64,000 nt of DNA, from positions 248,306 to 312,305 of the forward strand of contig CAZXFD010000001.1 of NCBI GenBank assembly GCA_964640635.1. The letters are read 5' to 3'. Source of the stretch: an uncultured Gammaproteobacteria bacterium (GTDB taxonomy: Bacteria > Patescibacteriota > Patescibacteriia > UBA1558 > S5-K13). This document shows positions 7,742 to 46,953 of this stretch, one piece after another. The translations under genes were made by a program, and so were the position numbers. The notes under the pieces were generated by a model, which worked only from the letters and a program-made list of their open reading frames with translations, did no database searches and was not told the DNA's origin. Every line of letters begins with the position of its first letter. Within the stretch, counting starts at the first letter, position 1.

Positions 7742-7749
7742 TTATATAA

Positions 7750-13003: not shown

Positions 13004-13197
13004 ACAAAAAATATCTTATCTCAGATATTTCATAAAATTCGAAATTCAAACTTCTAAATTTAAAATTATTTTGGTACACTGCCGTGCTCTAACAACTATG
13101 TGCATACAATGTCCATAGGCTTTTTTAGGGTCTTTTTGATATTCTAAATTAGGCACATTAGTCATGGCTAAAATATTGCCCTAAGCACTATGTACCA

Positions 13198-13226
13198 TTG
13201 ACAATGTCAATTTAATATGATAATGT
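13198..13226 (+). promoter_or_regulatory. Sigma70-like promoter (TTGACA-17-TAATGT) in front of the 13272 ORF; the -35 lies in the palindrome TTGACAaTGTCAA
   Basis: Read directly from sequence, followed by a strong RBS AAGGAGG 6 nt before the ATG at 13272. Confidence 0.45.
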
Positions 13227-13271
13227 AATCTGTTAAATAATAACAAATAACTAAATTCTAAGGAGGATCAA

Positions 13272-13811
13272 ATGGACAATTTACTTATTATACTGTTAAA
13301 TCTCATATATGGATTCATTCCTTATGGGAAAAACATGGTATGTCTTTTTGGTGGAATAAACAAAAATGGGAGTGTCTACTCTCTAATTAGTTTATTCACT
13401 AAAGCAGAAAACGCCTATTCAATAATTAATATTTCTTCTGTGGTTAAAAACAATTTGTGGACTCTGCTCAATATATTGGGGTTCGCGAATGGATCAAGTG
13501 GAAACATACTATCGTTGATAAGTTTTGCAGCCGATGCAAAAAAGGAAATTAAAATTGCTTTTAGCGTTCTTGCTTTTTCTTCTGGAAATTTAAGAACATT
13601 TATTAACTTTGTTGGCATGGCAGACGAAAATATTGATGTTTATCTTTTTTCTTTCTTTGCGGCATCAACAAGTGTAAAAATAACGTTTTTCAGCTTTATT
13701 GCTATTGCCTTTAATTATGTAGAAGCAAAAATAAGCTTCTTTGCGATAGGACCAAAGGTAAAAGTTATTGTTGGGGCGTTGAGTTTAAGACAAAATTCGA
13801 ACATAGTGTAA
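13272..13811 (+). CDS. Hypothetical hydrophobic, low-complexity protein
   Basis: Strong promoter and SD upstream; the translation is Ser/Gly/Phe-rich with hydrophobic stretches; no homology recognised. Confidence 0.35.
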   Translation: MDNLLIILLNLIYGFIPYGKNMVCLFGGINKNGSVYSLISLFTKAENAYSIINISSVVKNNLWTLLNILGFANGSSGNILSLISFAADAKKEIKIAFSVLAFSSGNLRTFINFVGMADENIDVYLFSFFAASTSVKITFFSFIAIAFNYVEAKISFFAIGPKVKVIVGALSLRQNSNIV

Positions 13812-13834
13812 AATAATCGACCACGCTATTTAAA

Positions 13835-13866
13835 AGACTCGTTATAATTATGCGGGTCTTTTTTAT
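13835..13866 (+). terminator. Rho-independent terminator (AGACTCG-N11-CGGGTCT + T6)
   Basis: Hairpin followed by TTTTTT, downstream of the 13272 ORF. Confidence 0.4.
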
Positions 13867-13953
13867 TTCTCAAAAACAAAAAACACCTATTTCTAGGTAT
13901 TTCATGGTTCTCGCCACGACAAGGTGTTGAGGTCTCTTGAATCTCTCAAGGGG

Positions 13954-14028
13954 TGGTACCGCCACGGAGAATCGAACTCCGGTTACCAGGATGAGAACCT
14001 GACGTCCTAACCACTAGACGATGACGGC
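13954..14028 (-). tRNA. tRNA-Glu (anticodon CUC)
   Basis: Reverse complement GCCGTCATCGTCTAGTGGTTAGGACGTCAGGTTCTCATCCTGGTAACCGGAGTTCGATTCTCCGTGGCGGTACCA folds as a 75-nt cloverleaf. It has a 7-bp acceptor stem (2 G.U), a GTTCGATTC T-loop, the anticodon loop TTCTCAT, and an encoded CCA. Confidence 0.8.
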
Positions 14029-14039
14029 ATTAGAATAGT

Positions 14040-15056
14040 TTAGTACTTTTTGAATATTTTTTCAATATCACTAACCTTTTTTATACTAACCAACTCTTTT
14101 CTCATTTCTCTTGCATTTTCTTGGTTTTTTGTATAAAAGAGAAGATGTTTTCTCATTTCTACCATTCCATAATCATTACTAGATTTTTCAACTAATTTTG
14201 CATGAGATAGGGCAATTTTTTTTATTTGTGCCCAAGTTTTTTCTTTATATTTATTTTCTTTAAGATATTTTTTAATTTGATCAAATATCCAGGGTTTTCC
14301 ATAAACACCACGAGCAATGCCAACTCCATCAGCTTGAGTTAAAAATAGAGTTTTTTGTGCTTGTCCTGGATCATAGATATTTCCATTTGCTATTATAATA
14401 CCACTGAAATATTTTCTAACTTTTTTTATATAGTTATAATCAATTTCACCAGAAAAACCTTGTTCATAAGTTCTTCCGTGGATCATTATTGTAGAAACTC
14501 GTAAATCCTTAATTTTTTTTATTAGATCGATAGACTCAATAATATCTTTTTTACTTTTAACATCTAATTTTTTTGCTTTACAACTTTCTGCTTTTATAGA
14601 TTTTCTTACTTTTATTGAAACTGGTAAATCTGTATTATCACAAACTGTTTTAATAATTTTGTAACATAAATCTAAATCACGCATTAGAGTTGCACCACCT
14701 CCGTGACCAGCGACTTTTTTTGCCGGACATCCGAAATTGATATCAATTCCTGAAAAACCAAGTTTTGTGATTATTTGAGTAGCGCGTGCAAATTTTTCGG
14801 GATCTTTTCCAAATAGCTGGACTACAACAGGTTTTTCACCTTTAAGGATTTTTAACATATTATGAGTTTTTTTTGAATTGAAATGAAGACCGTCAGCAGA
14901 GATCATCTCAGTATAAACTACATCAGCTCCATTTTTTCGGCATATCGTACAGAACGCAGGATCTGTAATTCCTGCCATAGGAGCTAGTACTAAAATAGGC
15001 TTTCGCAGTGAAAGCCAGAAGTTTTTGGTATTAATTTGCGTTGTCTTTTGTATCAT
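14040..15056 (-). CDS. dus: tRNA-dihydrouridine synthase
   Basis: LVLAPMAGITDPAFCTICRKNGADVVYTEMISADGL ... FGCP; TIM-barrel FMN Dus signature. Confidence 0.8.
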   Translation of the reverse strand: MIQKTTQINTKNFWLSLRKPILVLAPMAGITDPAFCTICRKNGADVVYTEMISADGLHFNSKKTHNMLKILKGEKPVVVQLFGKDPEKFARATQIITKLGFSGIDINFGCPAKKVAGHGGGATLMRDLDLCYKIIKTVCDNTDLPVSIKVRKSIKAESCKAKKLDVKSKKDIIESIDLIKKIKDLRVSTIMIHGRTYEQGFSGEIDYNYIKKVRKYFSGIIIANGNIYDPGQAQKTLFLTQADGVGIARGVYGKPWIFDQIKKYLKENKYKEKTWAQIKKIALSHAKLVEKSSNDYGMVEMRKHLLFYTKNQENAREMRKELVSIKKVSDIEKIFKKY

Positions 15057-22922: not shown

Positions 22923-22996
22923 TCGGGGATCGTCTAATGGTAGGACAACAGGTTCTGGTCCTGTTTATTGGAGTTCGAATCTCTATCCCCGAGCCA
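22923..22996 (+). tRNA. tRNA-Gln (anticodon CUG)
   Basis: TCGGGGATCGTCTAATGGTAGGACAACAGGTTCTGGTCCTGTTTATTGGAGTTCGAATCTCTATCCCCGAGCCA has a U1-A72 acceptor pair typical of bacterial tRNA-Gln, a TTCGAAT T-loop, the anticodon loop TTCTGGT and an encoded CCA. Confidence 0.85.
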
Positions 22997-23031: not shown

Positions 23032-24147
23032 TTATTGAAATGCTAGAATTGGAATATTATTGATGTGCTCAAACCCGATTGTGACACTATTGTGACAATT
23101 ATTATCCATTTGCTTACTTAATACACTTATTGCATCTGTTGTTGCAAGTGGTCCTAAATGAGAATATCTCATTGTAGTTTTAACATCAGAGTGTCCTAAT
23201 AATTCTTTAACGATAAGTATTGAAACTCCACTTTGAACTAAATGAGAAGCAAAAGTGTGTCTTAAAGCGTGCCAACCTATTCTTCTTAATCCTGCTAATT
23301 TACAAGCATCATGAAGTCCTTCTAGAGCCACACTGGAGGTATAAGGCTTTTCACCAACGTTTGGAAAGACTAAACCAGTTTTTATTGATCTGCTGTTCAA
23401 TAAATAAAAGAGTTGTGAAGCTAGTGGAACATATCTTATCTTATTACTTTTCGTACTTCCAATTAAGCCCCTAGTAATAGATCTTCTAACAATAATTTTT
23501 CTATTGTTGAGATCAATATCGCTCCAATCAAGAATAGCAAGCTCTCCAAATCTCAATCCAGTCATAGAGTCCATTAAAATCATCTCTTTTATCATCCCAT
23601 TAGACGCGAATAAAAGTGATGACAATTCTTCGTTGCTCAGAAAATCAAATTTCTGTGGAGGAACTTTTAATAGTCTCATTTTAGGTACCTTATTTATACA
23701 CTCCCATTCTTGGGCTGTCTTAAGACATTTACTTAGAATCGTTAGAAGATTATTTATTGTTTTTGGGTTTAGTTTTTCCGATAGCTTTTTTGCTTTAAAT
23801 TCTTCTATCTGCAATACGGTTATTTTATCTAAGTGTAATTTTCCAAAAAATGGAATTAAATGTCTATTAAGAGCATATCTCTTACTAGCTTGTTCAGATT
23901 CTTTGTTGTTATTTACAACATAGGTTTTGTGCCATTTTAGCGCAAATTCAGAAAATATAGGTGCCTTGGTATATTTCTCTATTTTCTCGATTATATCTTC
24001 ACCACGGGCTAATTTAGAGCGAATAATACCCTCATAAACCTTGGCTCCGGTAAAACTATTTTCTGGACTAGGCATTCTATGTCTTTGTCTATTAAACATG
24101 AAATCTATCCAATATTTATTTCCTCTTTTACGTATACTCATATTCAT
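23032..24147 (-). CDS. int: Tyrosine-type site-specific integrase
   Basis: C-terminal catalytic motifs GWHALRHTFASHLVQSG ... LLGHSDVKTTMRYSHL (R..HxxR..Y); N-terminal SAM-like domain; adjacent to the tRNA. Confidence 0.9.
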   Translation of the reverse strand: MNMSIRKRGNKYWIDFMFNRQRHRMPSPENSFTGAKVYEGIIRSKLARGEDIIEKIEKYTKAPIFSEFALKWHKTYVVNNNKESEQASKRYALNRHLIPFFGKLHLDKITVLQIEEFKAKKLSEKLNPKTINNLLTILSKCLKTAQEWECINKVPKMRLLKVPPQKFDFLSNEELSSLLFASNGMIKEMILMDSMTGLRFGELAILDWSDIDLNNRKIIVRRSITRGLIGSTKSNKIRYVPLASQLFYLLNSRSIKTGLVFPNVGEKPYTSSVALEGLHDACKLAGLRRIGWHALRHTFASHLVQSGVSILIVKELLGHSDVKTTMRYSHLGPLATTDAISVLSKQMDNNCHNSVTIGFEHINNIPILAFQ

Positions 24148-24449: not shown

Positions 24450-24914
24450 TTATTTAGCTTCTTTCATTATTCGATAAATTTCTGATTCTGGTAAAAAACG
24501 ACTAAATATTTTTTCTATTCTTTTATTTGACTCTTCTCTTTTTCTAGCTAATTCTTCTGGATCTTCTTGGATTTGAATTTGTTGAATATAACTATCATTA
24601 AACATTCCAATTGATTTTCCGATCCAAATATTAGCATTTAATCTTACGTTTTCATTCTTAGACGATTCGGCTAAATGTTTTAAGTTTTTTAAAACGTAAT
24701 CTGAATTTAGCTCTAGAACATCGAACCTTCGTTGCAAATATATCTTAACCTTAGTTATTCTTAGCAATTTACTAGCATTAACAGCCGCAACTTCATCGCT
24801 CAGTGTTTGTCCATATACTTTTTTATATGCTTTAGTAGCATTGCGATTACAATTTATGTATTCTTCTGCAAAAACTAATTGCTTATCTATTTCTTTTGTT
24901 TTTGTTGTGTTCAT
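24450..24914 (-). CDS. Phage terminase small subunit-like protein (Terminase_2 family)
   Basis: KQLVFAEEYINCNRNATKAYKKVYGQTLSDEVAAVNASKLLRITKVKIYL matches the TerS N-terminal HTH consensus (KQxxFxxEY...NAT.A........A...AS.LL...V). Confidence 0.55.
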   Translation of the reverse strand: MNTTKTKEIDKQLVFAEEYINCNRNATKAYKKVYGQTLSDEVAAVNASKLLRITKVKIYLQRRFDVLELNSDYVLKNLKHLAESSKNENVRLNANIWIGKSIGMFNDSYIQQIQIQEDPEELARKREESNKRIEKIFSRFLPESEIYRIMKEAK

Positions 24915-25117: not shown

Positions 25118-26254
25118 CTAGTTTTTGGTTGCTGGAAAATAATAATTTGCTTGTCCCTGTTTACCTACATCTAAAATTTCAGCATCTACTAATTCTTTAA
25201 ATGCCGACCTTAAATTACTATCTTTAATATCTGTTTGATTTAGTACGTCTCTAATTGTTAATCCAGAGACCTCTTTTAGCATCTCTAAAATCTTTTCTTT
25301 GGCCTCGTCGACTTTTTTTGTCTTTTCTTGAGCTTCTCCTAGAAATTCCCATCTTATTTTTTTTTCTGTGTCTATAATTCTAATCACCACCTTTTGCTGT
25401 AATTTTTTTGACGACCTTGCTTTTTCTTGTGAAATTGTTATATCTAAAGCATTTTCACCTTCTTCAGTTATAGAATTTTTTGATTCCAGTGCTAAATGAG
25501 AAGATGTTTTACTTACAATTTCTGAACTACCCCTCATTGAATTTTGACTTATTTTCTCTCCTTGATATGGCTTACGGTTATGGTGTGTAAAAATCACAGA
25601 AATTTTGGTTTGTCTGATTAACTCTAATAATTGACTTGTAATTTTTTTCATTTCTGTTGAACTATTTTCCTCTTTATCATGAATTGTAGTAAGGGTATCT
25701 AATATTATTACCCCGTAATTATTTTTTTGTATTTTGAGTACTAAATTATTGAAATCTTCAGGATCGTCAATTTTAAAATTCTGATCTATCATATAGTCTA
25801 AACCCGCTATGTTGTCATTCGCTATTTTTTGTAGTCTTAATGCAATTTCATTCTTGTTCATTTCGCCATCCACATAAAGCACTTTTGTTTTCTCTACTTC
25901 ATATTCCCCAAAGACTTTTTTTCCTTGGATTATTTGATATGCCATAATTAATACTAATAAAGATTTTCCGGCTCCAGACTGTGCAGAAATCGCTGTAATG
26001 CTTTCTTTGGGAATCAGTGGATTAATAATGAAATATTCCGGTTGAACTTTATATTTCATTAATTCTTGAGCAGTTGTAATAACAAAATCATTAGACTCAT
26101 CAATAATCTTTGATTCATCTTGTTGTTCAAATTTTGGAAATTTCATATCTTCTAATCTTGAAGTTTGTATATCATCCCAATTAGGAGCCTCAATCAATTT
26201 AATTTCTCCATCCATAGAACCTTTTGTTTCATTATTAGTCTCATTTGTTGGCAT
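25118..26254 (-). CDS. RecA-fold replicative ATPase (AAA_25/RepA-like) with a C-terminal winged-helix domain
   Basis: Walker A SAQSGAGKS; YVDGE; Walker B VIILDTLTT; FTHHNRK; C-terminal wHTH. Confidence 0.6.
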   Translation of the reverse strand: MPTNETNNETKGSMDGEIKLIEAPNWDDIQTSRLEDMKFPKFEQQDESKIIDESNDFVITTAQELMKYKVQPEYFIINPLIPKESITAISAQSGAGKSLLVLIMAYQIIQGKKVFGEYEVEKTKVLYVDGEMNKNEIALRLQKIANDNIAGLDYMIDQNFKIDDPEDFNNLVLKIQKNNYGVIILDTLTTIHDKEENSSTEMKKITSQLLELIRQTKISVIFTHHNRKPYQGEKISQNSMRGSSEIVSKTSSHLALESKNSITEEGENALDITISQEKARSSKKLQQKVVIRIIDTEKKIRWEFLGEAQEKTKKVDEAKEKILEMLKEVSGLTIRDVLNQTDIKDSNLRSAFKELVDAEILDVGKQGQANYYFPATKN

Positions 26255-27046: not shown

Positions 27047-27787
27047 CTAAACAGTATACTTATTTTCTAATTTTTTATATTCTTCTTCGTTTTTTAATGT
27101 TTCTATGTGGATAACTTTTGTAATAGTATTCGCTCTCTTTTCTAATATAGAGGTTGGAGTAAAAATTTTATCACAATAGAATTTTAATCTTTTATTATAA
27201 TTAATACTCATTAATGTTTTGATGTTGCAATCTTTCAAAATATCTATATTAACGTCTTTATTTCTTATTTCTGCTAAATTATATAAGCTATCCGCCCAAC
27301 CCTTTTTATCATTAGCACTCATATTTCTTGGAAATATTGACGCATTCTTTATCTCGCCAATCACAATATATTTATATCCTTTGGAACCATCTTTAAATAT
27401 ATACAATTTCTTGATTTTGTTTTTCTCCTTTTCATCCATAATTTCTCTACATAATTTATTGAATTCGTTGCTTATATTAATTACATATTGATATGGGTAT
27501 TTAAAATACATTCCTAAATATTTACTAGGCACTAATTCATCTTCTTCTGAATTTGGCCTTACGCTTTGTAAAAATCCTGAATTTTTTAACTCATCCAAAG
27601 CTATAGGAAATAATGAATTCACAAAGCCGCTATTTTTCAATTCCTCGTCTTTAATTATTAAGTCTATTTGGTCAAATTTCTCATTTAGTGGGTGGTATTC
27701 ATAAAATGGGTCTGATTTTAAAGTTTTCAATTTAATCTTTAATAATCCAATTATAAACTTTTTGCCATCTTCAATATTGGTATTCAT
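27047..27787 (-). CDS. Hypothetical protein (internal DELKNSGF repeat)
   Basis: 246 aa ORF. Confidence 0.4.
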   Translation of the reverse strand: MNTNIEDGKKFIIGLLKIKLKTLKSDPFYEYHPLNEKFDQIDLIIKDEELKNSGFVNSLFPIALDELKNSGFLQSVRPNSEEDELVPSKYLGMYFKYPYQYVINISNEFNKLCREIMDEKEKNKIKKLYIFKDGSKGYKYIVIGEIKNASIFPRNMSANDKKGWADSLYNLAEIRNKDVNIDILKDCNIKTLMSINYNKRLKFYCDKIFTPTSILEKRANTITKVIHIETLKNEEEYKKLENKYTV

Positions 27788-28255
27788 ATATTTTTCATTT
27801 TAATCTTAATATATTTCTATAATATCTCTATTGCATAGGCTTGTAAACAATATATTGATTACCTAGGTGTTTTAACATATAATAAAAGAGCCAAACGATA
27901 GAAGAAATTTATAGGGATTTTAATAAAATCACAGCTTTTTGTGACATTCTCATTTGTGACAAGGATCGGGCATACCGACCAAAACACAAATGGGAATTCC
28001 TATGGATACCTTTTGTCGTTTGGCAGGTCGGGTGTCCGTTTTTGTTTATATAAATAAATTAAATAACTATGGAAATAAGACAAATGATAATTGCATTCAC
28101 GTGGATAATGTTTTGGGGATACGTTATTGCAAATATTAGTCATGCACAAAAAGAATCCAAGGTGTTTTATTGGCTTCTTTTAATCTCTATAATGATATCA
28201 TTAACAATTATTAAAATTTAAAAGCCACATAAATATTATAGGGTAAATTAATAAT

Positions 28256-29098
28256 ATGAAAAAAATATTACATTTTGATGATGAGTCAGTGTTGGGTAAT
28301 ATGTTTAAGTTAAAATTTGAAAAAGCTGGATTTATTGTTCAGTATTATGAAAAACTTCCAAAAGATGAAGAAGAATTTATTAATTTAGTCCTATCAGAAA
28401 ATCCAAATATTATTTTGACTGATATTATTCACCAAGGATTAGATGGATTTGAAATGACAGAAATATTAAAAGGTGATGATAGAACAAAAAACATTCCAAT
28501 TATTGCTTTTACAAACATGAATCAGGAAGAAGACATAAAAAGAGGCATTGATTTAGGAATGAGTGATTATATTGTTAACACAACAAAAATAGAGGAAATT
28601 GTCAGTAGAATAAACAACATAATAAATAATAAGATTTCTAAGAAACAAAAAACTATGAAGCAGATTCTAGACAAAACAATGGAGCTTATTGAATCTTCGA
28701 AGAGGACTATGGCGGCAAGATTTTGCAGTGGAGATGGGAGAAATGAAACTTTTGGTATTGATTTTGGTCCGATCACTCCAGAAATTGACTCGAATATGGC
28801 GGCAGAAGCCTATGGCTCAATAGGCATATATTTTTCTAAGAACAAAACGGATCGCAGTTTATCTGAAGGTCAATTTTGTTTAATATTAATGATGGGCGAA
28901 GATATAATGGTTGGATCATTTATTATTGCAAAACTTGGTGGAGAAGAAATGATAAATGAAATGAGAAAAAGAATTATAGACTTAAGAATTAAGAATGTTG
29001 GTGATAGGATAGATGGATTAGAAGAAGCTGTTTTACTAAAAGAAACAAACGATTATTTTGACCACTGTTTAAATTTTGGAAATAATTTAGCTAAGTAA
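28256..29098 (+). CDS. Orphan response-regulator receiver (REC) domain protein with an uncharacterised C-terminal domain
   Basis: The acidic pocket DDE and ILTDIIHQGLDGFEM ... IIAFT ... GMSDYIVN follow the CheY-like REC pattern; the ~150-aa C-terminal domain is unknown. Confidence 0.55.
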   Translation: MKKILHFDDESVLGNMFKLKFEKAGFIVQYYEKLPKDEEEFINLVLSENPNIILTDIIHQGLDGFEMTEILKGDDRTKNIPIIAFTNMNQEEDIKRGIDLGMSDYIVNTTKIEEIVSRINNIINNKISKKQKTMKQILDKTMELIESSKRTMAARFCSGDGRNETFGIDFGPITPEIDSNMAAEAYGSIGIYFSKNKTDRSLSEGQFCLILMMGEDIMVGSFIIAKLGGEEMINEMRKRIIDLRIKNVGDRIDGLEEAVLLKETNDYFDHCLNFGNNLAK

Positions 29099-29122
29099 TT
29101 TAAATTATTTAGTCATATTAGA

Positions 29123-30157
29123 ATGTACAATTATCTTAAACCAAAAGAATACTACGAAGATCTATATGATAAATTTACCGTAAAAAGATGCCTTGATCAT
29201 GAAAGATTCTTTTTAAAACAACAGATAGATCCAAATGATAAGGATGCTAAAGAAAAAGAAAGGGTCTTAAATGCAGCACTTGGGGTGTCTCTATATTTCA
29301 TAAAAGGATATAGATATAAAGAAAAAGAATCCACTATTCAAGAATGGATGAATAGAGATAAGGAGATTGATAGAAGATTGGAGGAAGCTATACTATATAA
29401 CGTAAAATGTCCTTTTTGTCACAGTGCTAATATGAGTCTAGAGTCTAAAGACGTGCTTGAAGAGCGTGTTTTATTTTTATATAAATGCGATGATTGCAAG
29501 AAAATAAGTTCTTTCAATGAATATGGTGAAAGAAAAACATTTGAATCAAGGTGTCCTAAATGTAACGATATATTAGAGGGTAAAGCGAAAAGAGAAAAAG
29601 ACAAAATAACATCTTATTATAAATGTCCTAGCTGTAATTATAAAGAAAAACCAGAGGTATATTTATTTAAAAATAAAAAGGAAGAAGATAACAGTTGGAA
29701 AAAATACAGAGAAATATGTTGTTTTAGCGAAATTAAGGGTAGAGAATTTATTGACGGAGAAATAAGATTAAAGGGTATGAGAGATCTTGTTGATGAAATA
29801 AAGACAATGGATGCTAACAAGGGGCTTTACGAAAGACTAGATAAATTAGAAAAATTAAATATTGCCAAACTAAAAGAACTATTAAATAAGTCTTTAGTAA
29901 AAAACAAATATACACAATTAAAATTTTCAGAACCTGAGATTGGTAAAGATGTCATTGTCAGCTTCAAAGTTCAAGACAACGACGCAGTAAGAGAAGAATA
30001 TGAAAGTAAAGATGAATTAAAAAAGACAATCAACGAAACACTTAAAAATACTAATTGGAGATTAATGAGTGATGGTGTTAATTATAGACTAGGCTTTTTA
30101 AGTGGGAGATTAAGAGGATATGAAAATAAGGACGATTTATTAAAGTTAGTGAAGTAA
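29123..30157 (+). CDS. Hypothetical protein with two Cys4 zinc ribbons
   Basis: Cys pairs CPFC...CDDC and CPKC...CPSC. Confidence 0.45.
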   Translation: MYNYLKPKEYYEDLYDKFTVKRCLDHERFFLKQQIDPNDKDAKEKERVLNAALGVSLYFIKGYRYKEKESTIQEWMNRDKEIDRRLEEAILYNVKCPFCHSANMSLESKDVLEERVLFLYKCDDCKKISSFNEYGERKTFESRCPKCNDILEGKAKREKDKITSYYKCPSCNYKEKPEVYLFKNKKEEDNSWKKYREICCFSEIKGREFIDGEIRLKGMRDLVDEIKTMDANKGLYERLDKLEKLNIAKLKELLNKSLVKNKYTQLKFSEPEIGKDVIVSFKVQDNDAVREEYESKDELKKTINETLKNTNWRLMSDGVNYRLGFLSGRLRGYENKDDLLKLVK

Positions 30158-30165
30158 AATTTATG

Positions 30166-30975
30166 CTATACATTAATTTGTTTATTCTTTATAATCACGG
30201 CACCATTTTCTTGGATTAATTTATTTACAGATAAAATTCTTTCTTTAAATTCATTTGGTTGACTTTCAAAACATTCTTGATAATCCTTGCTCCACTTTTC
30301 GATTAGTAGCATTGAAGCATTTTTGCCTATTTCATATAAATCTTCTGGGGATATAAATTTCAACTTAAAATTTGTAAGTTTCTCTAATTTTCTGGATTTA
30401 TTTTTTAGCATAGAATCCGAAATCTGCAATCCACGATCAACTGATAAAAAATGGGTCAAAGAATTTCTTAAATAACGCAATTCTTCTACGGTTATATTAT
30501 TTGCTCTTTCCTTATTTATTTGTACCCATTTATTATTTTTGTTGAGACAAAAATTGCCATAAAAGGATTTCCAGACTTTTTTATCTAAAGTTAATTTTCT
30601 GATTTCCGCTCCATCACTAATTTTATTTTCATAGGCAAATTCTAATCTCATTAATGTCTCTAGGTAAGCAAATAAAAATATCGCCTCTGATCGAACCGAA
30701 TTAACACCCATTAATTTTTCTGCGGTAGTGGTTGGATTCTCAGAAAGTGTGAATCTAAATTCGATTGAATTTTCTTTAAGTTTTTGAAAAAGTGCTTGTA
30801 TAAGTTTTAAATTTTCAGCATACTGTAGACCTATTTCCCATAGTTTTTTATTAAATCCTAAAATATCCTCAATCTCTTTTTCTATCTCCTGTAGAAAATT
30901 AACTATGGGCATCAAATTGGGAGAAATAACAATTTTCTTTCCATCAAAAACAATATGTGTATTTTGGTATTGCAT
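30166..30975 (-). CDS. Hypothetical protein
   Basis: 269 aa ORF. Confidence 0.4.
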   Translation of the reverse strand: MQYQNTHIVFDGKKIVISPNLMPIVNFLQEIEKEIEDILGFNKKLWEIGLQYAENLKLIQALFQKLKENSIEFRFTLSENPTTTAEKLMGVNSVRSEAIFLFAYLETLMRLEFAYENKISDGAEIRKLTLDKKVWKSFYGNFCLNKNNKWVQINKERANNITVEELRYLRNSLTHFLSVDRGLQISDSMLKNKSRKLEKLTNFKLKFISPEDLYEIGKNASMLLIEKWSKDYQECFESQPNEFKERILSVNKLIQENGAVIIKNKQINV

Positions 30976-31010
30976 ATTAATATTAAATAATTCTATTCTT
31001 TATAAGAATA

Positions 31011-33689
31011 TTACCTATTACCAAACAAATCAATTAATTGTTTAAAACTCGTTGGTTTATATTTATCCCACTCTTCTTGTTTAACATAAAGCATTTTATA
31101 TGAAATCTTTTTCTGTCTTTCGCTGGCGTCATCACACCATTGTGCTAATCTCTTTATTTTTTCAATATCATCTAAATCTTCCCTTCCTTTTGTTTCTACA
31201 ATATAAATTGTTTTATTATCTGGTTTCACAAAAAAATCTGGATAATAACTAGAAATTGCTCCGCTAGCATTTTTGTAGTCAATTTTAAAATGAATTTCAT
31301 AATAGTTTTTTGCAAAAGAAATTACATCATCCGCGGTTTCTAAAAAGTCTGCGAATTCTAATTCAAAATCACTATCGCCAACAATTTTATTAAAAACGCT
31401 TTTCTTTGGCAACAAATATTTTTTATCAGTAACTACAAATGGTCTAGCACTGCTTACTTTAAGATAGTTTTTTATTTCTGTATCACCAACATCTTGTACC
31501 GTTAAGTTATTTATTTCTTTTTTAAATGTTTCTACAATTGTTTTAACTGCTTCTAGTTCTGACAAATTTCTTAAAATATTTAAATCATTTAAATCAATAT
31601 TTTCATTAAACAAATGATTAATAATAAATTCTTTCACTTTACCAAATAAAATATCATAACAACCAAAAAGACGAAGTTCCTTCATTATCCTTTGTACGAA
31701 GAAACCGACAACACTTTGATAATTAGGTTCAATAAAAGTTTCTAAAATTGTTGTGTGGTGTATTTTATCGTCAATGACTTCTTTAAATACTATCTCTTTT
31801 TTTTCTGCTTCTGAAAACTGTTTTATTTTAATTTTCTCATGTTTAAAATTTGACGCATCTAACAAATTAAGATTTTTATATTCTCTTTGTATTCTTGGCG
31901 TTAATACTGGTAATTCTATATCCAAATTTTCAATATCTTTTTTTACATTTTCTGTATCAACTTCAATAACAGTTGGTGTAATTGGAGAACCACTACGATC
32001 CATTTTTCTTTTTTCCAACTCAACGCCTTCTGCTTTTATAGATTCAACGAACTCCATAAACGCAGGAGTTCCAATAACACTCACATATTCTTCTACGTCT
32101 TGACCAAAAAACATTCTTCTAAGACCACGTCCTAAAGTTTGCTCTGGCAATATTTTTGAATCAGATCCATATGGACGCAAACCAACTATTGTAGTTACAT
32201 TTTTCACATCCCAACCTTCTTTCAACATAAGAACGGATACGATTACTTTATACGGACTTTCTGAACTATCTATGTTATTAGCTTGCTTTCTCAATTCTTC
32301 AAGTTCTTCTTTGCTTTTTCCAGAAACACTTTCGGAAATTTCACCGCTTTGATTTGTGTGAATTGTTAAGACACAACCCTTTAATTTAGGGTAATGTTTT
32401 TCTAAAAATTCAGCTACATCATCGCAATTTCTAGTATTATCTGCCATTATAAATAAAATTGATTTTTTACCGGTTGGTTTTAATTCTTTATATGTCTTTT
32501 CCCATTCTTCAACTCCTAGTCTTATAAAATCTTCGTATTTTTCTGCAAAAAGAGAACTTTGTTTTTCTTGAAGTTTGGCTCTACTTGCTTGATCTGGTAA
32601 AACTGGATTTTTTACAACGCCTTGATGTATTGCTTCAACCAATGGATAATCCGAAACTGTTTGAACAAAAATTTCACCCCTATTGTTTTTTGGCGTTGCG
32701 GTTACATCAATCTGTAATGCTAATTTTTTATCTTTTTGTAATAATTTATTGTGTATATCTTCAATAGATTTAAACCAAGCCATTTTTGGATCGTGTATAT
32801 GATGAGCTTCGTCGTTTATAACCATGAGTTCATCGACGTCTCTGACTATTTCCCCCAAGTCTACTTTTGAATCATTTGTTTTTCCAACTACTTTATTGCC
32901 AAGAAAATAATCTGATGTATCTTCATCTTCAAAGCTTGATTCATTTATACTACCCTCATACACTCTATGAATATTTGTAAGAAAAATATTTCCAGATTTT
33001 GAAATCGTGCCAACTTCATCTTGTAAATGAAGTTTAATTTGAAAATCATCTTGCCAATTTTGTCCGCAATAACCATTATCAGGCAAAATAGGATCTTCAT
33101 AAAATATTTTTAATCCCTCGAAGTCATTTTTTATTCTATCTAAAACAATGATATTTGGAGTTATTAATAAAAAGTTTTTTGAAAGTTCTGAGTTTTCTTC
33201 ATATAGTTTATGAAAATAAGACCATGCTAAAATCAAACTCATTACTTTTGTTTTTCCTGCACCTGTAGCCATTTTAACAACAAAACGAAGCCAATCCTCT
33301 GTAAACATATTAGGGCTTACTCTACCTAACTTATCGAATTTAATTAAATCATATTTGTTTTCAACTTTTTCTACATCATAAAGCCAAATAATTGTTTCCA
33401 CTGCTTCTCTTTGTGCAAAATAATACTGAAAGGAAATACTTGTTCCGTCTTTAATAAAAATAGTGTGCGGTTCTTTAAACCACCAATTTAATAAAGCTTT
33501 TGAAGTTTCACTTGCCCCACTATAATCATTCTTTCTCCATTCATCTATTCTTTCTCTTAATTCTGGAACGAATGGTGGTAAAAGTTTTTCATATCCTTTT
33601 TCACGTAAATCTTCATCTGCAGGAAACCATCTAATAGATGGCTCTAGTATTTGAAACTTATCTTTTGGAAAATCTTTATGTAATGCCAT
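31011..33689 (-). CDS. res: Type III restriction enzyme Res subunit (SF2 helicase + C-terminal PD-(D/E)XK nuclease)
   Basis: Walker A MATGAGKTKV; DEAH box VINDEAHH; helicase motif VI; C-terminal YIVETKGRE (ExK). Confidence 0.8.
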   Translation of the reverse strand: MALHKDFPKDKFQILEPSIRWFPADEDLREKGYEKLLPPFVPELRERIDEWRKNDYSGASETSKALLNWWFKEPHTIFIKDGTSISFQYYFAQREAVETIIWLYDVEKVENKYDLIKFDKLGRVSPNMFTEDWLRFVVKMATGAGKTKVMSLILAWSYFHKLYEENSELSKNFLLITPNIIVLDRIKNDFEGLKIFYEDPILPDNGYCGQNWQDDFQIKLHLQDEVGTISKSGNIFLTNIHRVYEGSINESSFEDEDTSDYFLGNKVVGKTNDSKVDLGEIVRDVDELMVINDEAHHIHDPKMAWFKSIEDIHNKLLQKDKKLALQIDVTATPKNNRGEIFVQTVSDYPLVEAIHQGVVKNPVLPDQASRAKLQEKQSSLFAEKYEDFIRLGVEEWEKTYKELKPTGKKSILFIMADNTRNCDDVAEFLEKHYPKLKGCVLTIHTNQSGEISESVSGKSKEELEELRKQANNIDSSESPYKVIVSVLMLKEGWDVKNVTTIVGLRPYGSDSKILPEQTLGRGLRRMFFGQDVEEYVSVIGTPAFMEFVESIKAEGVELEKRKMDRSGSPITPTVIEVDTENVKKDIENLDIELPVLTPRIQREYKNLNLLDASNFKHEKIKIKQFSEAEKKEIVFKEVIDDKIHHTTILETFIEPNYQSVVGFFVQRIMKELRLFGCYDILFGKVKEFIINHLFNENIDLNDLNILRNLSELEAVKTIVETFKKEINNLTVQDVGDTEIKNYLKVSSARPFVVTDKKYLLPKKSVFNKIVGDSDFELEFADFLETADDVISFAKNYYEIHFKIDYKNASGAISSYYPDFFVKPDNKTIYIVETKGREDLDDIEKIKRLAQWCDDASERQKKISYKMLYVKQEEWDKYKPTSFKQLIDLFGNR

Positions 33690-33693
33690 AAAA

Positions 33694-35421
33694 TTATTTT
33701 TTCAACCATTGAAATATATCATTAAAATTAGATTTAGTTTTTTTATTGAATTTATCAATACTATTTTTAGAAAACTTAATATCCTCTAAGAATAATCTTG
33801 CAAGTAATTCTTTTTTTCTATCTTTTGCAATTTCAGAATTTGCCTTATTATAGGAATGACGCTCTTTTAAAATATACTTATTAAAATCGGTTTTGTAAAA
33901 TAAGTCTTCTACGCCCTCAAAGCCATCTAATTTTTTGATAGTTCTGCTTAAATCGTCTTCGTTATATGGAAAAAAATATTTTACAATATCCCTATAAACA
34001 CTTTTGCCCTCCTTACCATCATCAAAGATAACTTTAAATTTTACTCCCCAACCAATTAAAATACTTATTAGTGGGCGTATATTTTTTACACCACAAGCAG
34101 GAATAAATAGATAATCTTCTTTTATGTCAAGCAACTTTTTAAACGCCTGGAGATAATATTGATCCGTTATTCCTTCCACTACAATACAAGTTTTACTTGT
34201 ATCAATGATCTGGCCAAAATAACTGATACCCATTGCTGTGATTATTGGAGATAGAGCATCCTTACTTGCACCCTCTTTTGATGATGCAAATTGAGCAATG
34301 TTATTTATTTTAGTCCCACCATCCTTCATTTGAAAAATGAGTCTAATTCTTAATAATTCATCATCATTAACTCCAATAAGTGATGGATTGTGTGTGGTAT
34401 ATAAAATTTGCATCCCTTTTTTAGCAAGCTCCTCTAATACAACCTTTACATTTTTTTGAGCAGTCTCATGTAAGCCCTGCCCCGGCTCATCTATTAAAAG
34501 AATATAGTTATTGAAATTTTTATTTTCAACTCCAAGAGCTTTTAATCTAAGCATAAAAGCATTAAACCATTGAAACCCCTTGCTTTTTTGTTCCATAAAC
34601 AGAGGTATTCCATCTTCTCTATGAATAAGAAACTCTACTCTTGACTCTTCATTGTTTGGAATAAGATTAATATCAAAACGATATTTATCTTCAATGCCGT
34701 CAATTCTCTTTTGAGTCCAGTAAGTATTGAGATCTAGTTCTGCCATTTTTTCAATTGAATTTTTAATTGTACTTCTCTCTTGGGGAGTTTTATTCATCAC
34801 TTCTTTAAAATTCACATCAAAAATTTGTTGAAAATCTTGGACTGCTTGGTTAGATTCTATATTTGCTATATTTATTTCACCCGGCAGTAAATTAGAAAAC
34901 GAATCGTACATTATAAATTCTGGCAATAAATTTATAACATGAGACACCACAGTATCTAAAAATTCTTCTTTAGCTTTCAAAATTGCTTTTTCATGTTCTT
35001 CTCCCTCACTATCTATTCCTTGAGATAAATCAATTTTTGAAATTATCTCTTCCATTTTCAAAACACTTTCATCAGAAATATAAATATCCCCAGACTCTTC
35101 ATCTGAAGTTCCGCTTCTATAACAAGTGACTACTTTAAGTTCTTTTATAGTTTTATTTATTCTATCATCTTCTGAATTATAATCTTTATTTTCAAAACAA
35201 AAGATACACGTAATCTTAGGTTCCGAGTTAATTCTTTTAGAGAGCTTAATAAATTTTTCATCTGGGCCATTTTTAAAATAATTTAAAGCCTCTAGTATTG
35301 CACTCTTACCAGCTTCATTTTGTCCAGCAAGAACGGTTATATTATCTTTTTCTGAGAGATGACATACACCAGAGTTGATAATGGATTTTACATGCTCAAT
35401 TTGAAAGGATTGTAGTCTCAT
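33694..35421 (-). CDS. OLD-family ATP-dependent nuclease (ABC-type ATPase + C-terminal Toprim)
   Basis: Walker A GQNEAGKS; Q-loop/signature SKGFQW; Walker B ILLIDEPGQGLH; H-loop YTTHN; Toprim-like CIVVEGITDQYY and VIFDDGKEGK. Confidence 0.7.
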   Translation of the reverse strand: MRLQSFQIEHVKSIINSGVCHLSEKDNITVLAGQNEAGKSAILEALNYFKNGPDEKFIKLSKRINSEPKITCIFCFENKDYNSEDDRINKTIKELKVVTCYRSGTSDEESGDIYISDESVLKMEEIISKIDLSQGIDSEGEEHEKAILKAKEEFLDTVVSHVINLLPEFIMYDSFSNLLPGEINIANIESNQAVQDFQQIFDVNFKEVMNKTPQERSTIKNSIEKMAELDLNTYWTQKRIDGIEDKYRFDINLIPNNEESRVEFLIHREDGIPLFMEQKSKGFQWFNAFMLRLKALGVENKNFNNYILLIDEPGQGLHETAQKNVKVVLEELAKKGMQILYTTHNPSLIGVNDDELLRIRLIFQMKDGGTKINNIAQFASSKEGASKDALSPIITAMGISYFGQIIDTSKTCIVVEGITDQYYLQAFKKLLDIKEDYLFIPACGVKNIRPLISILIGWGVKFKVIFDDGKEGKSVYRDIVKYFFPYNEDDLSRTIKKLDGFEGVEDLFYKTDFNKYILKERHSYNKANSEIAKDRKKELLARLFLEDIKFSKNSIDKFNKKTKSNFNDIFQWLKK

Positions 35422-37532
35422 ATGTTTATTTCTATTACTTTAGTCGTATCATTACCAAAAATATCAATAACTTTTATTGCTATTTTTGTTTTGCCTTTTG
35501 GCATTTCTTTTGGAGCTGAAACAAGTTCTAAATTTCGATCTTTTTTAGTTCTAAAAGATTGCCATTCATTTTCAAAAATATAATTTCCCGTCCATTGTTC
35601 TTTTTCTTCTTGAGTTTTTTCATCAATTATTCGAATAATTTCTTTTTTGCTTTCAAAATTAAAATCAATAGACCAATAATCAATCCAATCAGTCCATTTT
35701 TTTGTTAAAATTTCTCTTTCGATAATATCTGTATTTTTATCTTTAGATATTTTTATAACTTGACCATTTTCGATAAGAATTTTACTTCCGCCAGCTTTCA
35801 ATGCTTCTTCTACTTCTCCGGTATTGTCTTGATTATAAAAAACACTAAAATCTGTTAATTCAATTGAGACATCCTTAACATTACCACGACCTTTTATAAT
35901 TGGCTTAACTTCAATATAGGCTATATCATAAAACTTTACCTGTCCTTTCTCTACGGCTTTTTTATCAAAAACTTCTCTTGGTATTACTTTGAATTGAATA
36001 TCTAATCCTTGTTTTTTAGTTTCTTCAAAATCTAATCCCATTTCATAATCAAATCCAAGAACATCCGCTTTTGTAATTCCTTTTTCTTTACATTCTTTAA
36101 TTATCTCATCTAAAAAATTGCTTGTAATAGGTGTATCTATTTGTCCTACAGCTACGAGTCTATCTCTTTTTTTACCAACAAAAAAATTGAACGAGTCTAC
36201 TAGTTCGGCTTTATAAGCAGATAAGATAAGTCTTATAAATTCTTTTTCTTTATTTTCTTTTTGAATTCTTTTTTCTTCTTCTCTTAAATTTTCATTTATA
36301 GTTAAAAATTTTTCTCTTTCATATTTTCCAATATTTAAAATTTCAAATGCTCTGAAATTTTTACCTTGTTTTTTTAATTCTCTTTGAACACCAATCATTC
36401 TTTTACGGGTAGTGTGAATAGAAAATTTACCCAAATCTGAACCAATCCATTTCCTACCTAACTTTTCTGCAACCGCCAATGTAGTTCCGGAACCAACAAA
36501 AAAATCAGCTATAAGATCTCCTTCGTTAGAGGATGCTTTAATAATTCTTTCCATTAATGCTTGTGGTTTTTGGGTAGGATATCCTATGTGTTCTGGTAGA
36601 GCGTGAAACACTTGGACAACATTATTTTCTTTTCTATCCAACCACGTCCAAACATCATCTGCCTTTCTACCCTCATCAGCATAATATCTAGTCGCGTTGT
36701 TATTTCCAGACATTCTATATTTTCTACCATCTTTATCAATTAGAGGGTAAATTTTTTCGTCTTTGACCAATAGTCTAATTGCATTATAGATATTTTGATT
36801 TTTAGTTTTAGTGTAAACTAAAATATTATCGTGTTTTTTTGCAAAACCCTTTAGTGGTGCTGTCCCGGCTTGATAATGCCAGATTAATTCATTGAGAAAA
36901 TTATCTTTTCCAAAAATTTCGTCTAATATCAGTCTAATAAAACTATTTACCCTCCAGTCACAGTGAACATAGATTGTTCCATCAGAAGCAAGTAAGTCGT
37001 ACATTAATTTTAATCTCTCATAAATCATGGCCACAAAACTATCCATGCCCCTTCCCCACGTATCTCTAAATGCAATCTCTTCAATCACTGATGGTTTTTT
37101 AGTAAAAGATTCTTCACCAATTTCAATATCCATAGAAAAATCTGCTCCAACATCAAATGGTGGATCAATATAAATAAGTTTTAATCCATCTTCAGCTTCA
37201 ATTTGTTTTCTGAGTGGACCATTTTTTAATGATGATAAAATTAATTTATTATCTCCCCAAATAAGTTTATTTGTCCATCCTTGAATTTGTCTTCCAGATG
37301 TATCAAAAATAGAACTTTGTAAATTCATAGTTTCCTCACTTCTTGGCTCATCAATATTTTCTATTGTTTGAAATGGTAATACGATATTTTCTACCTCATC
37401 AGTTTTGCCATTCCATAAAAGCTCAACTTCTCTATTATCATCAAACAGTAAAAATCTATACTTTTCCGGTAGTGGTTTTCCAACTTCTAGATATTTTATA
37501 ATATCTCGTTTTTCGTTATCTGTTAGTTGCAT
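35418..37532 (-). CDS. mod: Type III-like N6-adenine/N4-cytosine DNA methyltransferase (beta-class Mod)
   Basis: Motif IV IYIDPPF precedes motif I FFVGSGTT (beta order); 704 aa; the stop/start overlaps the next gene by 4 nt. Confidence 0.8.
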   Translation of the reverse strand: MQLTDNEKRDIIKYLEVGKPLPEKYRFLLFDDNREVELLWNGKTDEVENIVLPFQTIENIDEPRSEETMNLQSSIFDTSGRQIQGWTNKLIWGDNKLILSSLKNGPLRKQIEAEDGLKLIYIDPPFDVGADFSMDIEIGEESFTKKPSVIEEIAFRDTWGRGMDSFVAMIYERLKLMYDLLASDGTIYVHCDWRVNSFIRLILDEIFGKDNFLNELIWHYQAGTAPLKGFAKKHDNILVYTKTKNQNIYNAIRLLVKDEKIYPLIDKDGRKYRMSGNNNATRYYADEGRKADDVWTWLDRKENNVVQVFHALPEHIGYPTQKPQALMERIIKASSNEGDLIADFFVGSGTTLAVAEKLGRKWIGSDLGKFSIHTTRKRMIGVQRELKKQGKNFRAFEILNIGKYEREKFLTINENLREEEKRIQKENKEKEFIRLILSAYKAELVDSFNFFVGKKRDRLVAVGQIDTPITSNFLDEIIKECKEKGITKADVLGFDYEMGLDFEETKKQGLDIQFKVIPREVFDKKAVEKGQVKFYDIAYIEVKPIIKGRGNVKDVSIELTDFSVFYNQDNTGEVEEALKAGGSKILIENGQVIKISKDKNTDIIEREILTKKWTDWIDYWSIDFNFESKKEIIRIIDEKTQEEKEQWTGNYIFENEWQSFRTKKDRNLELVSAPKEMPKGKTKIAIKVIDIFGNDTTKVIEINI

Positions 37533-37883
37533 ATTGATTAATGTTTAGATATATTAATATGTTTAATAATCTCACATTTTAAGGCAAAAATCAATTTAAA
37601 AAACATCCCTGAAAATTAAGGATGTGTTTTTCTTATATCTCTAGAGATGCCATATGTAACTCAAAAAACTTTTTCAAAAGTCAGGGGTCAATTTAATCGA
37701 CGGGGGGTGGTCAACTCTATCAATATTGTTAGTGTCACATTGTGACACTATTGTGCCTAAGAGTTGACCCTCCATCTTAAAACTGATAATATTTAATCAC
37801 AATTGATAAGTTATATTTCTAGCATTTAAGAGGCTTTTATAAACTTTACACAGTATTAATCAATCATTATTAAAATAGCTTAC

Positions 37884-46705: not shown

Positions 46706-46726
46706 ACCTCCTAAAAAGGAGTTTTT
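46706..46726 (+). terminator. Rho-independent terminator (CTCCT-aaaa-AGGAG + T5)
   Basis: Read directly from sequence. Confidence 0.5.
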
Positions 46727-46953
46727 CCAACCACGTCTCTATACTAGTTGTCCTAGTCACGCCACCATCCGGTGACAGTTCAAGATACAGGTTTATGTAA
46801 TTACATTATATCTTACGTAAGATAGCTTGTCAATAACCCTTTAAATAAAGGGTATTTTATATATAAATTATTCGTATAATTAGTACCATTGGTATATTGG
46901 CATTGTATGTTCATTCGTATAATTGCTTTTTAGCTTAAAAAATGGGAAAATAG

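Follow-up and report, generated by a model that had tools for sequence, protein, structure and literature searches.

The 64,000-nt stretch of DNA analyzed here (the window hereinafter; positions 248,306 to 312,305 of the forward strand of contig CAZXFD010000001.1, assembly GCA_964640635.1, an uncultured Gammaproteobacteria bacterium according to GenBank and a member of Patescibacteriota according to GTDB) carries a Type III restriction-modification (R-M) operon in which a gene of the OLD nuclease family is nested between the mod and res genes. The operon and the region preceding it comprise the following features.

37533-37625, minus strand: region 5' of mod, a hairpin followed by an AT-rich leader of about 70 nt
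35418-37532, minus strand: mod, Type III beta-class N6/N4 DNA methyltransferase, 704 amino acids (aa)
33694-35421, minus strand: OLD-family nuclease gene, 575 aa, which fills the spacer between mod and res exactly
31011-33689, minus strand: res, Type III restriction subunit, 892 aa

In the list of open reading frames (ORFs), mod, the OLD gene and res are arranged head to tail, all on the minus strand. The stop codon of mod and the start codon of the OLD gene share 4 nt (ATGA), and the junction between the OLD gene and res reads TAA-TTTT-ATG, i.e. the two genes are separated by 4 nt. An initial examination of this DNA without any database search (the sequence-only reading hereinafter) had reported the same gene coordinates and the same overlap with mod, together with a 5-nt gap before res that has to be corrected to 4 nt. 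Upstream of mod, a terminator scan identified a terminator-like hairpin (37625-37603) that ends the upstream transcript, and the promoter of the operon is presumably located within the ~70-nt AT-rich leader 3' of this hairpin; a scan for sigma-70 promoters was uninformative in the AT-rich DNA of the window (64 sites compared with 53.7 +/- 6.7 expected). The weak terminator-like matches inside the operon genes have poor T-tails and were disregarded. Because of the 4-nt ATGA overlap with mod and the 4-nt gap to res, the OLD gene is very probably co-transcribed with the R-M genes, to which it might also be translationally coupled; a transcript starting in the AT-rich leader would span three, and probably four, genes, the fourth being orfx, a gene downstream of res that is described below. 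The GC content of the OLD gene and its GC content at third codon positions (0.297 and 0.212, respectively) match those of mod, res and the chromosome, and a recent insertion of a gene of foreign composition was rejected on this basis.

The two flanking genes encode the Mod and Res subunits of a Type III system, in agreement with the sequence-only reading and as indicated jointly by Pfam matches, PADLOC matches and motif order. In Mod, DPPF (residue 123) precedes FVGSG (residue 345), i.e. motif IV comes before motif I as in the beta class, and the protein matches Pfam N6_N4_Mtase (1.9e-44), the PADLOC model MTase_III (2e-111) and, among the sequences in PDB, EcoP15I Mod (4zcf, 1e-17) and H. pylori Mod (6k0w). 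Comparison of 57 orthologs shows that the center of Mod (approximately residues 200-320, window positions 36570-36930) is hypervariable, with 20-47% conservation as opposed to 70-89% elsewhere in the protein. This is the pattern expected of a Type III target-recognition domain and is consistent with the presence of allelic domains with many specificities in this Type III family. Res, encoded downstream of mod, consists of a superfamily 2 (SF2) helicase and a C-terminal PD-(D/E)xK nuclease; it contains the motifs GAGKT (143), DEAH (293), QTLGRGLRR (motif VI, 517), PD (817-818) and ETK (ExK, 832-834) and matches Pfam ResIII (4e-17), C-terminal RE_endonuc (3.7e-5), PADLOC REase_III (1.6e-20) and the NCBIfam model for BPTD_3080-family restriction endonucleases (2e-85, under the cutoff of that model). 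A sequence search of PDB with Res yielded no match to any solved structure, so that this protein is divergent from EcoP15I Res and is not tied to it by sequence. Biochemically, Type III systems are distinguished by ATP-dependent cleavage that needs two unmethylated sites in inverse orientation and by hemimethylation through Mod; in the literature that we searched, no characterized member of this Type III subfamily was found.

The 575-aa product of the middle gene consists of an N-terminal ABC ATPase (residues 1 to ~360) and, at the C-terminus, a Toprim domain (residues ~409-470, followed by a helical extension). The ATPase part is matched over the whole profile by Pfam AAA_15 (residues 1-349, 5e-14) and also by AAA_21 (1e-12), the Toprim part by OLD-like_TOPRIM (residues 409-467, 3e-6, 28 bits compared with a cutoff of 23.2). 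Among the PADLOC models, the best match is Old (2e-24), with weaker matches of AriA, AbiLi, GajA and PtuA to the ATPase. The best sequence match in PDB is 6p74, the class 1 OLD of Thermus scotoductus (TsOLD; 3e-4), with an identity of about 13%. An AlphaFold2 model built on 34 homologs (mean pLDDT 85) and compared to known structures using Foldseek again retrieved 6p74 as the top match (E 3e-13) and, next, the retron-Eco8 OLD and GajA, with alignments over the full length and low TM-scores of 0.35-0.40. The ATPase contains Walker A (GQNEAGKS, K39), Q-loop, signature-like motif, Walker B (LLIDEPGQGLH, D311/E312) and H-loop (TTHN, H344), and the Toprim domain contains VVEGITD (E416/D420) and FDDGKEGK (D467/D468). 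Like those quoted for Mod and Res, all motifs that the sequence-only reading had quoted for this protein are found in the translated ORFs.

Across 118 homologs with 40-100% identity, the ATPase residues K39, Q237, S280, G282, D311, E312 and H344 and the Toprim residues E416, D420, G444, D467, E505, D506, K537 and R542 are invariant, which implies purifying selection for activity. Thus, this is not a generic AAA_21 ATPase and does not lack Toprim catalytic residues, both of which had been considered as ways in which the OLD assignment could fail. The invariant Glu (E416), the Gly (G444) and the first Asp of the DxD motif (D467), which form the metal A site, are present, and this region aligns with the VEG..D and HDE motifs of TsOLD. 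In the OLD protein of B. pseudomallei (BpOLD), the second Asp of DxD is D457, the metal B ligands are E404 and T506/E508, and the catalytic Lys is K562 (PMC6755086). By order and spacing, the candidates for the metal B ligands and the Lys in the window protein are D420, E505/D506 and K537. These observations suggest that the middle gene encodes a full-length, apparently active ABC-ATPase/Toprim nuclease of the OLD family.

Searches for homologs of the OLD protein detected more than 330 sequences, mostly in metagenome bins of the Patescibacteria type, and the neighborhood survey that the sequence-only reading had suggested identified the mod-OLD-res triplet in at least 6 further lineages from Patescibacteria and Omnitrophota, i.e. 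in at least 7 including the window. The identities of the three proteins to those of the window are listed below (labels with the letter L denote the surveyed loci).

L005, Paceibacterota: Mod 65%, OLD 68%, Res 69%
L007, Omnitrophota: Mod 67%, OLD 52%, Res 75%
L126 and L127, metagenome: Mod 64%, OLD 68%, Res 69%
L128 and L129, metagenome: Mod 60%, OLD 65%, Res 65%
L130, metagenome: Mod 59%, OLD 66%, Res 66%
L131, metagenome: Mod (partial) 71%, OLD 59%, Res 74%

In every triplet, mod and the OLD gene overlap by ATGA, and the spacer between the OLD gene and res is 2-4 nt; the tight co-directional packing of the three genes that had been described for the window is thus conserved in at least 7 lineages. 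The mod-OLD-res arrangement is therefore real, old and mobile across phyla rather than a chance juxtaposition. In the plasmid and phage collections, the relatives of the OLD protein are at most 32% identical to it; the 2 plasmid loci that were inspected are solitary, and no triplet on a plasmid from a cultured organism was found.

Two of the metagenomic triplets have additional features. The triplet in L126 is bracketed by two modules in direct orientation (82-2665 and 12292-14755), each consisting of an HTH_36 gene and a gene for a large serine recombinase, which suggests another mobile element carrying the same operon. In L130, res is seemingly frameshifted near its 5' end (7737-7890): the sequence MALHPKFP... 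directly follows the OLD gene, and the called gene starts 150 nt later. This may reflect either inactivation of Res or an assembly error.

The junction between mod and res was further characterized through the relatives of the window Res. A metagenome scan yielded more than 467 such relatives, of which the best 80 (L046-L125; 74-91% identical to the window Res) were analyzed; 71 of these loci show both mod and res. Of the 71, 31 have the two genes side by side, whereas the remaining 40 have one to five co-directional ORFs between them; these inserts comprise 72 ORFs that belong to 40 sequence clusters. No OLD homolog is present among the 72 insert ORFs; in one locus (L096), an OLD homolog is located upstream of mod instead of within the slot. 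The nearest relatives of the window Res (91% identity, with Mod up to 87%) carry either no insert or a different one. In relatives free of cargo, mod ends with ...VIEVNI followed by the stop codon, tact and the ATG of res; the window mod ends with ...VIEINI and ATGA, the latter opening the OLD gene, which itself ends in TAA and is followed by TTTT and the ATG of res, so that the OLD gene is placed exactly in the 4-5 nt spacer that parts mod from res in its cargo-free relatives. Given that the relatives carry no insert or other inserts at this point, the OLD gene sits, to the nucleotide, in a junction with the behavior of an exchangeable cargo site. On both sides, this slot is bordered by conserved sequence (75-83% for the Mod C-terminus and 86% for the Res N-terminus), which provides homology for cassette exchange. 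A domain scan of 39 cluster representatives revealed the following cargo.

L095: SIR2+HerA pair
L115 and L117: Schlafen/AlbA_2-HATPase_c_4 proteins
L124: GmrSD
L118: YhcG/DUF1016 protein of the PD-(D/E)xK type
Other cargo: DUF3800 (PADLOC PDC-M04A), NYN, RiboL-PSP HEPN, HNH and PLD proteins
PADLOC candidates: PDC-S02, PDC-S13 and NsnA

DUF3800 (PDC-M04A) is among the commonest of these cargos, and several representatives have no Pfam match at all. Four slot ORFs of 376-452 aa (L067, 885-2243; L113, 6051-7241; L099, 6869-7999; L072, 6835-7998) contain no Pfam domain or only a spurious coiled coil and are candidate new defense genes by virtue of their embedding. The position 3' of res is also variable in L046-L125, with 36 clusters in 46 loci. 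The genes found there include some for defense-type proteins, such as a UvrD helicase that starts 2 nt after res (L062 and L064), AAA_13, NERD, AAA_15 with an OLD-like Toprim domain, PIN_12, SIR2_2 and DUF6602 proteins; this would make the operon's 3' end a second site for cargo.

The extreme diversity of the slot cargo and its turnover among near-identical Res backbones could be taken to mean that the OLD gene is a mere passenger, stabilized and spread by the post-segregational killing and the mobility of the R-M system, with no benefit to restriction and possibly no defense function in the host. The mobile context of the operon, which in the window rides a tRNA-integrated island (see below) and in L126 is flanked by serine recombinases, agrees with this possibility. 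We nevertheless consider it improbable: the catalytic residues of the OLD protein are invariant in homologs as distant as 40% identity, which points to purifying selection, and those slot cargos that can be annotated are defense-type genes as opposed to random ones.

The OLD gene is co-directional with, and located between, the core genes of a system that also exists without it, i.e. it has the hallmarks of an embedded defense gene. The approach of finding defense genes by their embedding within other defense systems (guilt-by-embedding) has been applied to Hma, BREX, DISARM and Type I R-M systems, with ABC ATPases as the commonest embedded family (Payne et al., 10.1101/2024.01.29.577857); the window case belongs to Type III, for which no such survey was found in the literature that we searched. 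PDC-M and PDC-S candidate families from that study also occur in the mod-res slot. One of the embedded proteins, HEC-04, a fusion of an ABC ATPase and a Toprim domain embedded in Hma, has been validated as a defense gene that requires the Walker A motif and the E/D/D residues of Toprim (10.1101/2024.01.29.577857). The HEC-04 model is not among the 25 best PADLOC matches of the window OLD protein, for which the Old model scores best. The only three-gene variant of Type III systems described in the literature searched contains an SF2 helicase gene 5' of mod (Murray et al. 2021, PMC8259958). We rejected this extra-ATPase system as an explanation of the window operon, because its third gene is that helicase and not an OLD gene between mod and res.

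To determine the contexts of the OLD family beyond the triplet, we surveyed 41 loci from GTDB species representatives, of which 39 are distinct. The family is linked to R-M genes in 14 of the 39 distinct loci, including those listed below.

L021 and L023: OLD nested in the order hsdM-hsdS-OLD-hsdR, with overlaps of 4-8 nt
L024, L031, L042 and L013: OLD in Type I operons
L017: OLD convergent to a Type I operon
L001/L006: OLD 3 nt after a pair of a methyltransferase (MTase) and an MvaI/BcnI-type restriction endonuclease (REase)
L010: OLD after an EcoRI-type MTase and a GmrSD/HNH protein
L032, L033 and L045: OLD overlapping Eco57I/MmeI-type Type IIG enzymes at their end

Altogether, OLD genes are packed with R-M genes of four types, with overlaps or gaps of 3-17 nt. 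The other annotated loci (L004/L015, L132 and more) are solitary and located beside housekeeping genes such as those for ribonucleotide reductase, DnaE, Mfd and UvrB, the his operon or ftsZ; one locus of the family lies within a conjugative element. In a neighbor-joining tree of OLD proteins, the R-M-linked members are spread among solitary ones; a Type II case is nested within the Type III clade, the sister of which is solitary. Judging from these neighborhoods, the OLD family is distributed autonomously and is not tied to Type III systems. Among the relatives from cultured Flavobacterium, two are found with Type I systems (L031/L042) and two with Type IIG enzymes (L032/L033).

These contexts bear on the proposal, made in the sequence-only reading, that the operon is a dedicated composite defense module in which the OLD protein borrows the helicase of Res, i.e. 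that the two form a Gabija-like complex with the SF2 helicase Res in place of the UvrD-like GajB. The gene order and the translational packing, which are conserved in at least 7 lineages, the position of the OLD gene immediately 5' of the helicase-nuclease gene in Type III and Type I loci alike, and the presence of GajA among the structural matches speak for such a complex. However, among the 71 loci with close relatives of the window Res (74-91% identity), 31 have no insert and 40 carry unrelated cargo, and this holds for orthologs that are 87-91% identical to the window Res; moreover, the OLD family accompanies Type I, Type II (helicase-free) and Type IIG systems or occurs alone. The best match by both sequence and fold is a class 1 OLD and not GajA, and class 2 OLD proteins require a superfamily 1 (SF1) helicase partner (PMC10568477), whereas no SF1 helicase is encoded among the ORFs scanned. 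Mainly because near-identical Res proteins occur without OLD and OLD accompanies helicase-free R-M systems, we regard a composite machine as very improbable.

Comparison with the described contexts of OLD genes (solitary, paired with UvrD, retron-associated, and PARIS) bears out the earlier statement that none of them applies here: the window gene is an OLD-family member that fits none of the context classes 1-4. Class 1 OLDs are single genes located away from other defense genes, and class 2 is defined by a UvrD/PcrA/Rep partner and a helical insert in the Toprim domain (PMC10568477). Similarly to class 1 proteins (P2 Old; TsOLD, the best match), the window protein combines ABC ATPase and Toprim in one polypeptide, its length is similar to that of P2 Old, and many members of its family are solitary. 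Class 1, however, is solitary by definition, whereas the window gene is nested with R-M genes and its triplet recurs in at least 7 lineages, in line with the frequent operonic linkage to R-M genes found in the GTDB survey, and its DxD motif reads DDG; more distant members of the family do occur in the class 1 context. Seven neighboring ORFs (27047-37532) contain no UvrD domain, which class 2 and Gabija would require. Gabija likewise includes an OLD-family nuclease next to a helicase-containing protein, and GajA is among the top fold matches, but GajB is an SF1 UvrD-like helicase and the neighbor in the window is the SF2 Res of a Type III system, whose close orthologs lack OLD. No reverse transcriptase domain was found in the neighboring ORFs and no retron msr/msd in the Rfam scan of the window, which sets the gene apart from class 3. 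PARIS also combines an ABC ATPase sensor with a Toprim effector and is encoded by two genes (AriA and AriB, the latter of DUF4435) whose products form an AriA6:AriB3 complex, in contrast to the single fused ORF of the window; the PADLOC AriA models match the ATPase part alone (1.6e-16), and there is no separate AriB-like Toprim partner adjoining the OLD gene, the neighbors of which are mod and res. Both PARIS and Gabija are triggered by the anti-restriction protein Ocr, and the triggering of PARIS by anti-restriction proteins fits an R-M-linked role.

In the Type I relatives of the window OLD, the gene is located at the hsdS-hsdR junction. This is also the position of prrC in EcoprrI, upstream of the helicase-nuclease subunit. 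PrrC, encoded in the Type Ic hsd locus EcoprrI, is the paradigm of an R-M guardian, an ABC ATPase-nuclease that is activated when Stp inhibits EcoprrI; this case, the role of PARIS as an anti-restriction sensor, and other guardian systems have been reviewed (PMC12707154). The window OLD resembles PrrC (and the related RloC) in that all are suicide effectors, putative in the case of the window, that combine an ABC ATPase with a nuclease and are encoded co-directionally inside an R-M operon. PrrC differs in its anticodon-nuclease domain and Type I host, as opposed to Toprim and Type III; for the window OLD, genomic analogy (the embedding, the ABC ATPase and the position just upstream of the R subunit) would suggest that the R-M complex masks the protein and that an anti-restriction peptide activates it. 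The main alternative to an autonomous OLD, modeled on PrrC and PARIS, is that the OLD protein serves the R-M system as a dedicated sentinel. It would either be kept inactive through contact with Mod2Res and set free once a phage anti-restriction factor disables the enzyme, or directly sense anti-restriction proteins such as DNA mimics, and would then abort the infection by cutting tRNA or DNA. The tight operonic association with R-M genes of four types, the R-M linkage both in the GTDB loci and in the clade closest to the window protein, the prrC-like position in Type I loci, the triggering of two other ABC-Toprim systems by Ocr and the divergence of the triplet as a unit all speak for such a sentinel. 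The difficulty is that a single OLD family accompanies unrelated R-M architectures (HsdR complexes, MvaI/BcnI-type and MutH-unrelated Type II enzymes, Type IIG fusions and Type III), so that it is hard to see one OLD surface binding all these partners; in addition, many members are solitary beside housekeeping genes, and position alone is not evidence of coupling given that the slot accepts 40 unrelated cargo clusters. A generic sensor of DNA mimics would fit all the data but is functionally equivalent to an autonomous sensor. On balance, a dedicated sentinel appears possible but doubtful. The stricter claim that the R-M-embedded OLDs constitute a fifth OLD context of latent guardians, which are held by or co-assembled with the downstream Res or HsdR and fire the Toprim tRNase or DNase once restriction is disabled by phage anti-restriction factors, seems to us somewhat less likely still.

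We therefore favor, with a probability of roughly 0.65, the interpretation that the OLD gene is an autonomous, exchangeable second-line defense cargo in a variable slot of a Type III R-M operon. The locus is an instance of the known nesting of defense genes in restriction operons rather than a new composite machine; of the proposals in the sequence-only reading, an additional abortive-infection or anti-anti-restriction layer is the better one, although the module is not undescribed in kind but is a variant of PrrC/EcoprrI, PARIS and the guilt-by-embedding cases. Under this interpretation, Mod2Res would provide the first-line cleavage of unmethylated invader DNA, and the OLD protein would be an autonomous second-line effector of the abortive-infection type that acts independently of Res. 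The ABC ATPase would hold the Toprim nuclease in check until it meets a cue from the phage. As in the analogous cases of P2 Old, Gabija and PARIS, this cue could be phage DNA that is aberrant or replicating, or else an anti-defense protein; the activated Toprim domain would then cut tRNA or DNA and arrest the infected cell. Nesting in the R-M operon would ensure co-expression and co-transfer, with no requirement for physical cooperation with Res. We infer this mechanism from the tRNase activity of P2 Old, which DNA structures switch on (10.64898/2026.07.10.737580), from the activation of PARIS and Gabija by Ocr, and from the validation of HEC-04.

Several observations weigh against the interpretation of OLD as an autonomous cargo. 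The Type III triplet is present in 6 of the 7 sampled lineages of the closest OLD clade (at least 59% identity), and the OLD, Mod and Res proteins have diverged to similar extents, as would also be the case for a functionally coupled three-gene system. That the OLD gene immediately precedes the helicase-nuclease subunit gene in Type I as well as Type III loci hints that it may be more than a passive hitch-hiker. In the Toprim domain, the second of the two Asp residues of the canonical DxD motif is displaced (D467-D468-G469, with D468 retained in 89 of the 118 homologs), so that nuclease activity is likely, as judged from the conserved residues, rather than assured. Co-transcription is deduced from the overlap and the missing intergenic space. 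Finally, the surveys are samples (the 41 GTDB loci and the best 80 of the more than 467 metagenome matches), with ORFs called by our own simple procedure.

The nesting of accessory immunity genes known for Hma, BREX, DISARM and Type I R-M extends to Type III systems. The 4-5 nt spacer between mod and res appears as a precisely bounded slot that accommodates at least 40 cargo clusters in one abundant environmental Type III family and, with several cargos that lack recognizable domains, provides a ready-made resource for guilt-by-embedding analysis. The definition of class-1-like OLDs as solitary genes is contradicted by one orthologous family that is habitually operonic with four types of R-M systems, and this R-M-linked family offers a concrete route to the activators (e.g. 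anti-restriction factors) and the substrate of single-chain OLDs. If the R-M-embedded OLDs were guardians, the principle of PrrC would extend to Type III systems and Toprim effectors, and the mod-res junction of this widespread Type III family of groundwater and candidate phyla radiation bacteria would be a rich hotspot of guardian-type and novel defense genes, some of them lacking any detectable domain. Current concepts are extended and none is overturned; this is not a categorically new system.

The operon is carried as cargo at the distal end of a 14.9-kb island integrated at a tRNA-Gln gene, the principal features of which, together with the gene that follows res, are listed below.

22923-22996, plus strand: intact tRNA-Gln(CTG), the proximal attachment site (att), identified by ARAGORN, Rfam and repeat D1
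23032-24147, minus strand: tyrosine integrase (Phage_integrase, 1.2e-30; Phage_int_SAM_3), 36 nt from the 3' end of the tRNA
24450-24914, minus strand: small-terminase-like gene (Pfam Terminase_2, 8.5e-9)
25118-26254, minus strand: AAA_25 replicase/helicase-like ATPase (Pfam AAA_25, 4.4e-28)
30166-30975, minus strand: orfx, separated by 35 nt from the end of res that lies upstream of it; encodes a helical protein of 269 aa
37884-37932, plus strand: 49-nt direct repeat that matches tRNA-Gln(CTG) in its 3' part (anticodon arm to acceptor end), the distal att on the 5' side of mod

The two copies of the direct repeat (family D1) are 80% identical and spaced by 14,936 nt, and a 25-nt sub-pattern of the tRNA fragment is unique in the window and was recovered in 0 of 100 shuffles. 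Outside the repeats, the island is flanked by dnaX upstream and by rlmH, an SPFH gene and uvrB downstream. The terS-like and AAA_25 genes, which are assigned to island maintenance, suggest a satellite element similar to the phage-inducible chromosomal islands (PICI-like). Also within the island, on the strand opposite to the operon (28256-30157, plus strand), are two genes, one of which encodes a stand-alone response-regulator receiver whose C-terminal region of 160 aa matches nothing in Pfam, and the other a protein of 344 aa in which several CxxC motifs resemble zinc ribbons and which matches Lar and Zn_ribbon weakly.

The product of orfx, the probable fourth gene of the operon, shows no match to Pfam, PADLOC or NCBIfam, but has 134 homologs and contains an invariant R170-N171-x3-H175 motif, which makes it a candidate HEPN RNase (HEPN RNases are recognized by an Rx4-6H motif within an all-helical domain). 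The three homologs that were looked up are each located directly downstream of a different R-M system, namely a Type IIG enzyme, an MTase with a MutH-like REase, and an MTase with a probable REase; in the 80 Res loci, no orfx homolog was found. The orfx gene is probably a second R-M passenger without a family name. The window thus documents both an R-M passenger family with a HEPN-type motif and a satellite-like, tRNA-integrated island that carries defense cargo in a reduced genome of the Patescibacteria type, a type that is suggested by the source names of the homologs and by a GC content of 29%.

The Rfam scan of the window at gathering thresholds detected only two tRNAs and a DUF3800-IX RNA motif (46725-46793, minus strand; 52.9 bits compared with the gathering threshold of 36.8). 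Given that DUF3800 proteins are among the commonest cargos of the mod-res slot, the window may hold another defense-candidate locus, of the DUF3800 type, at this RNA.

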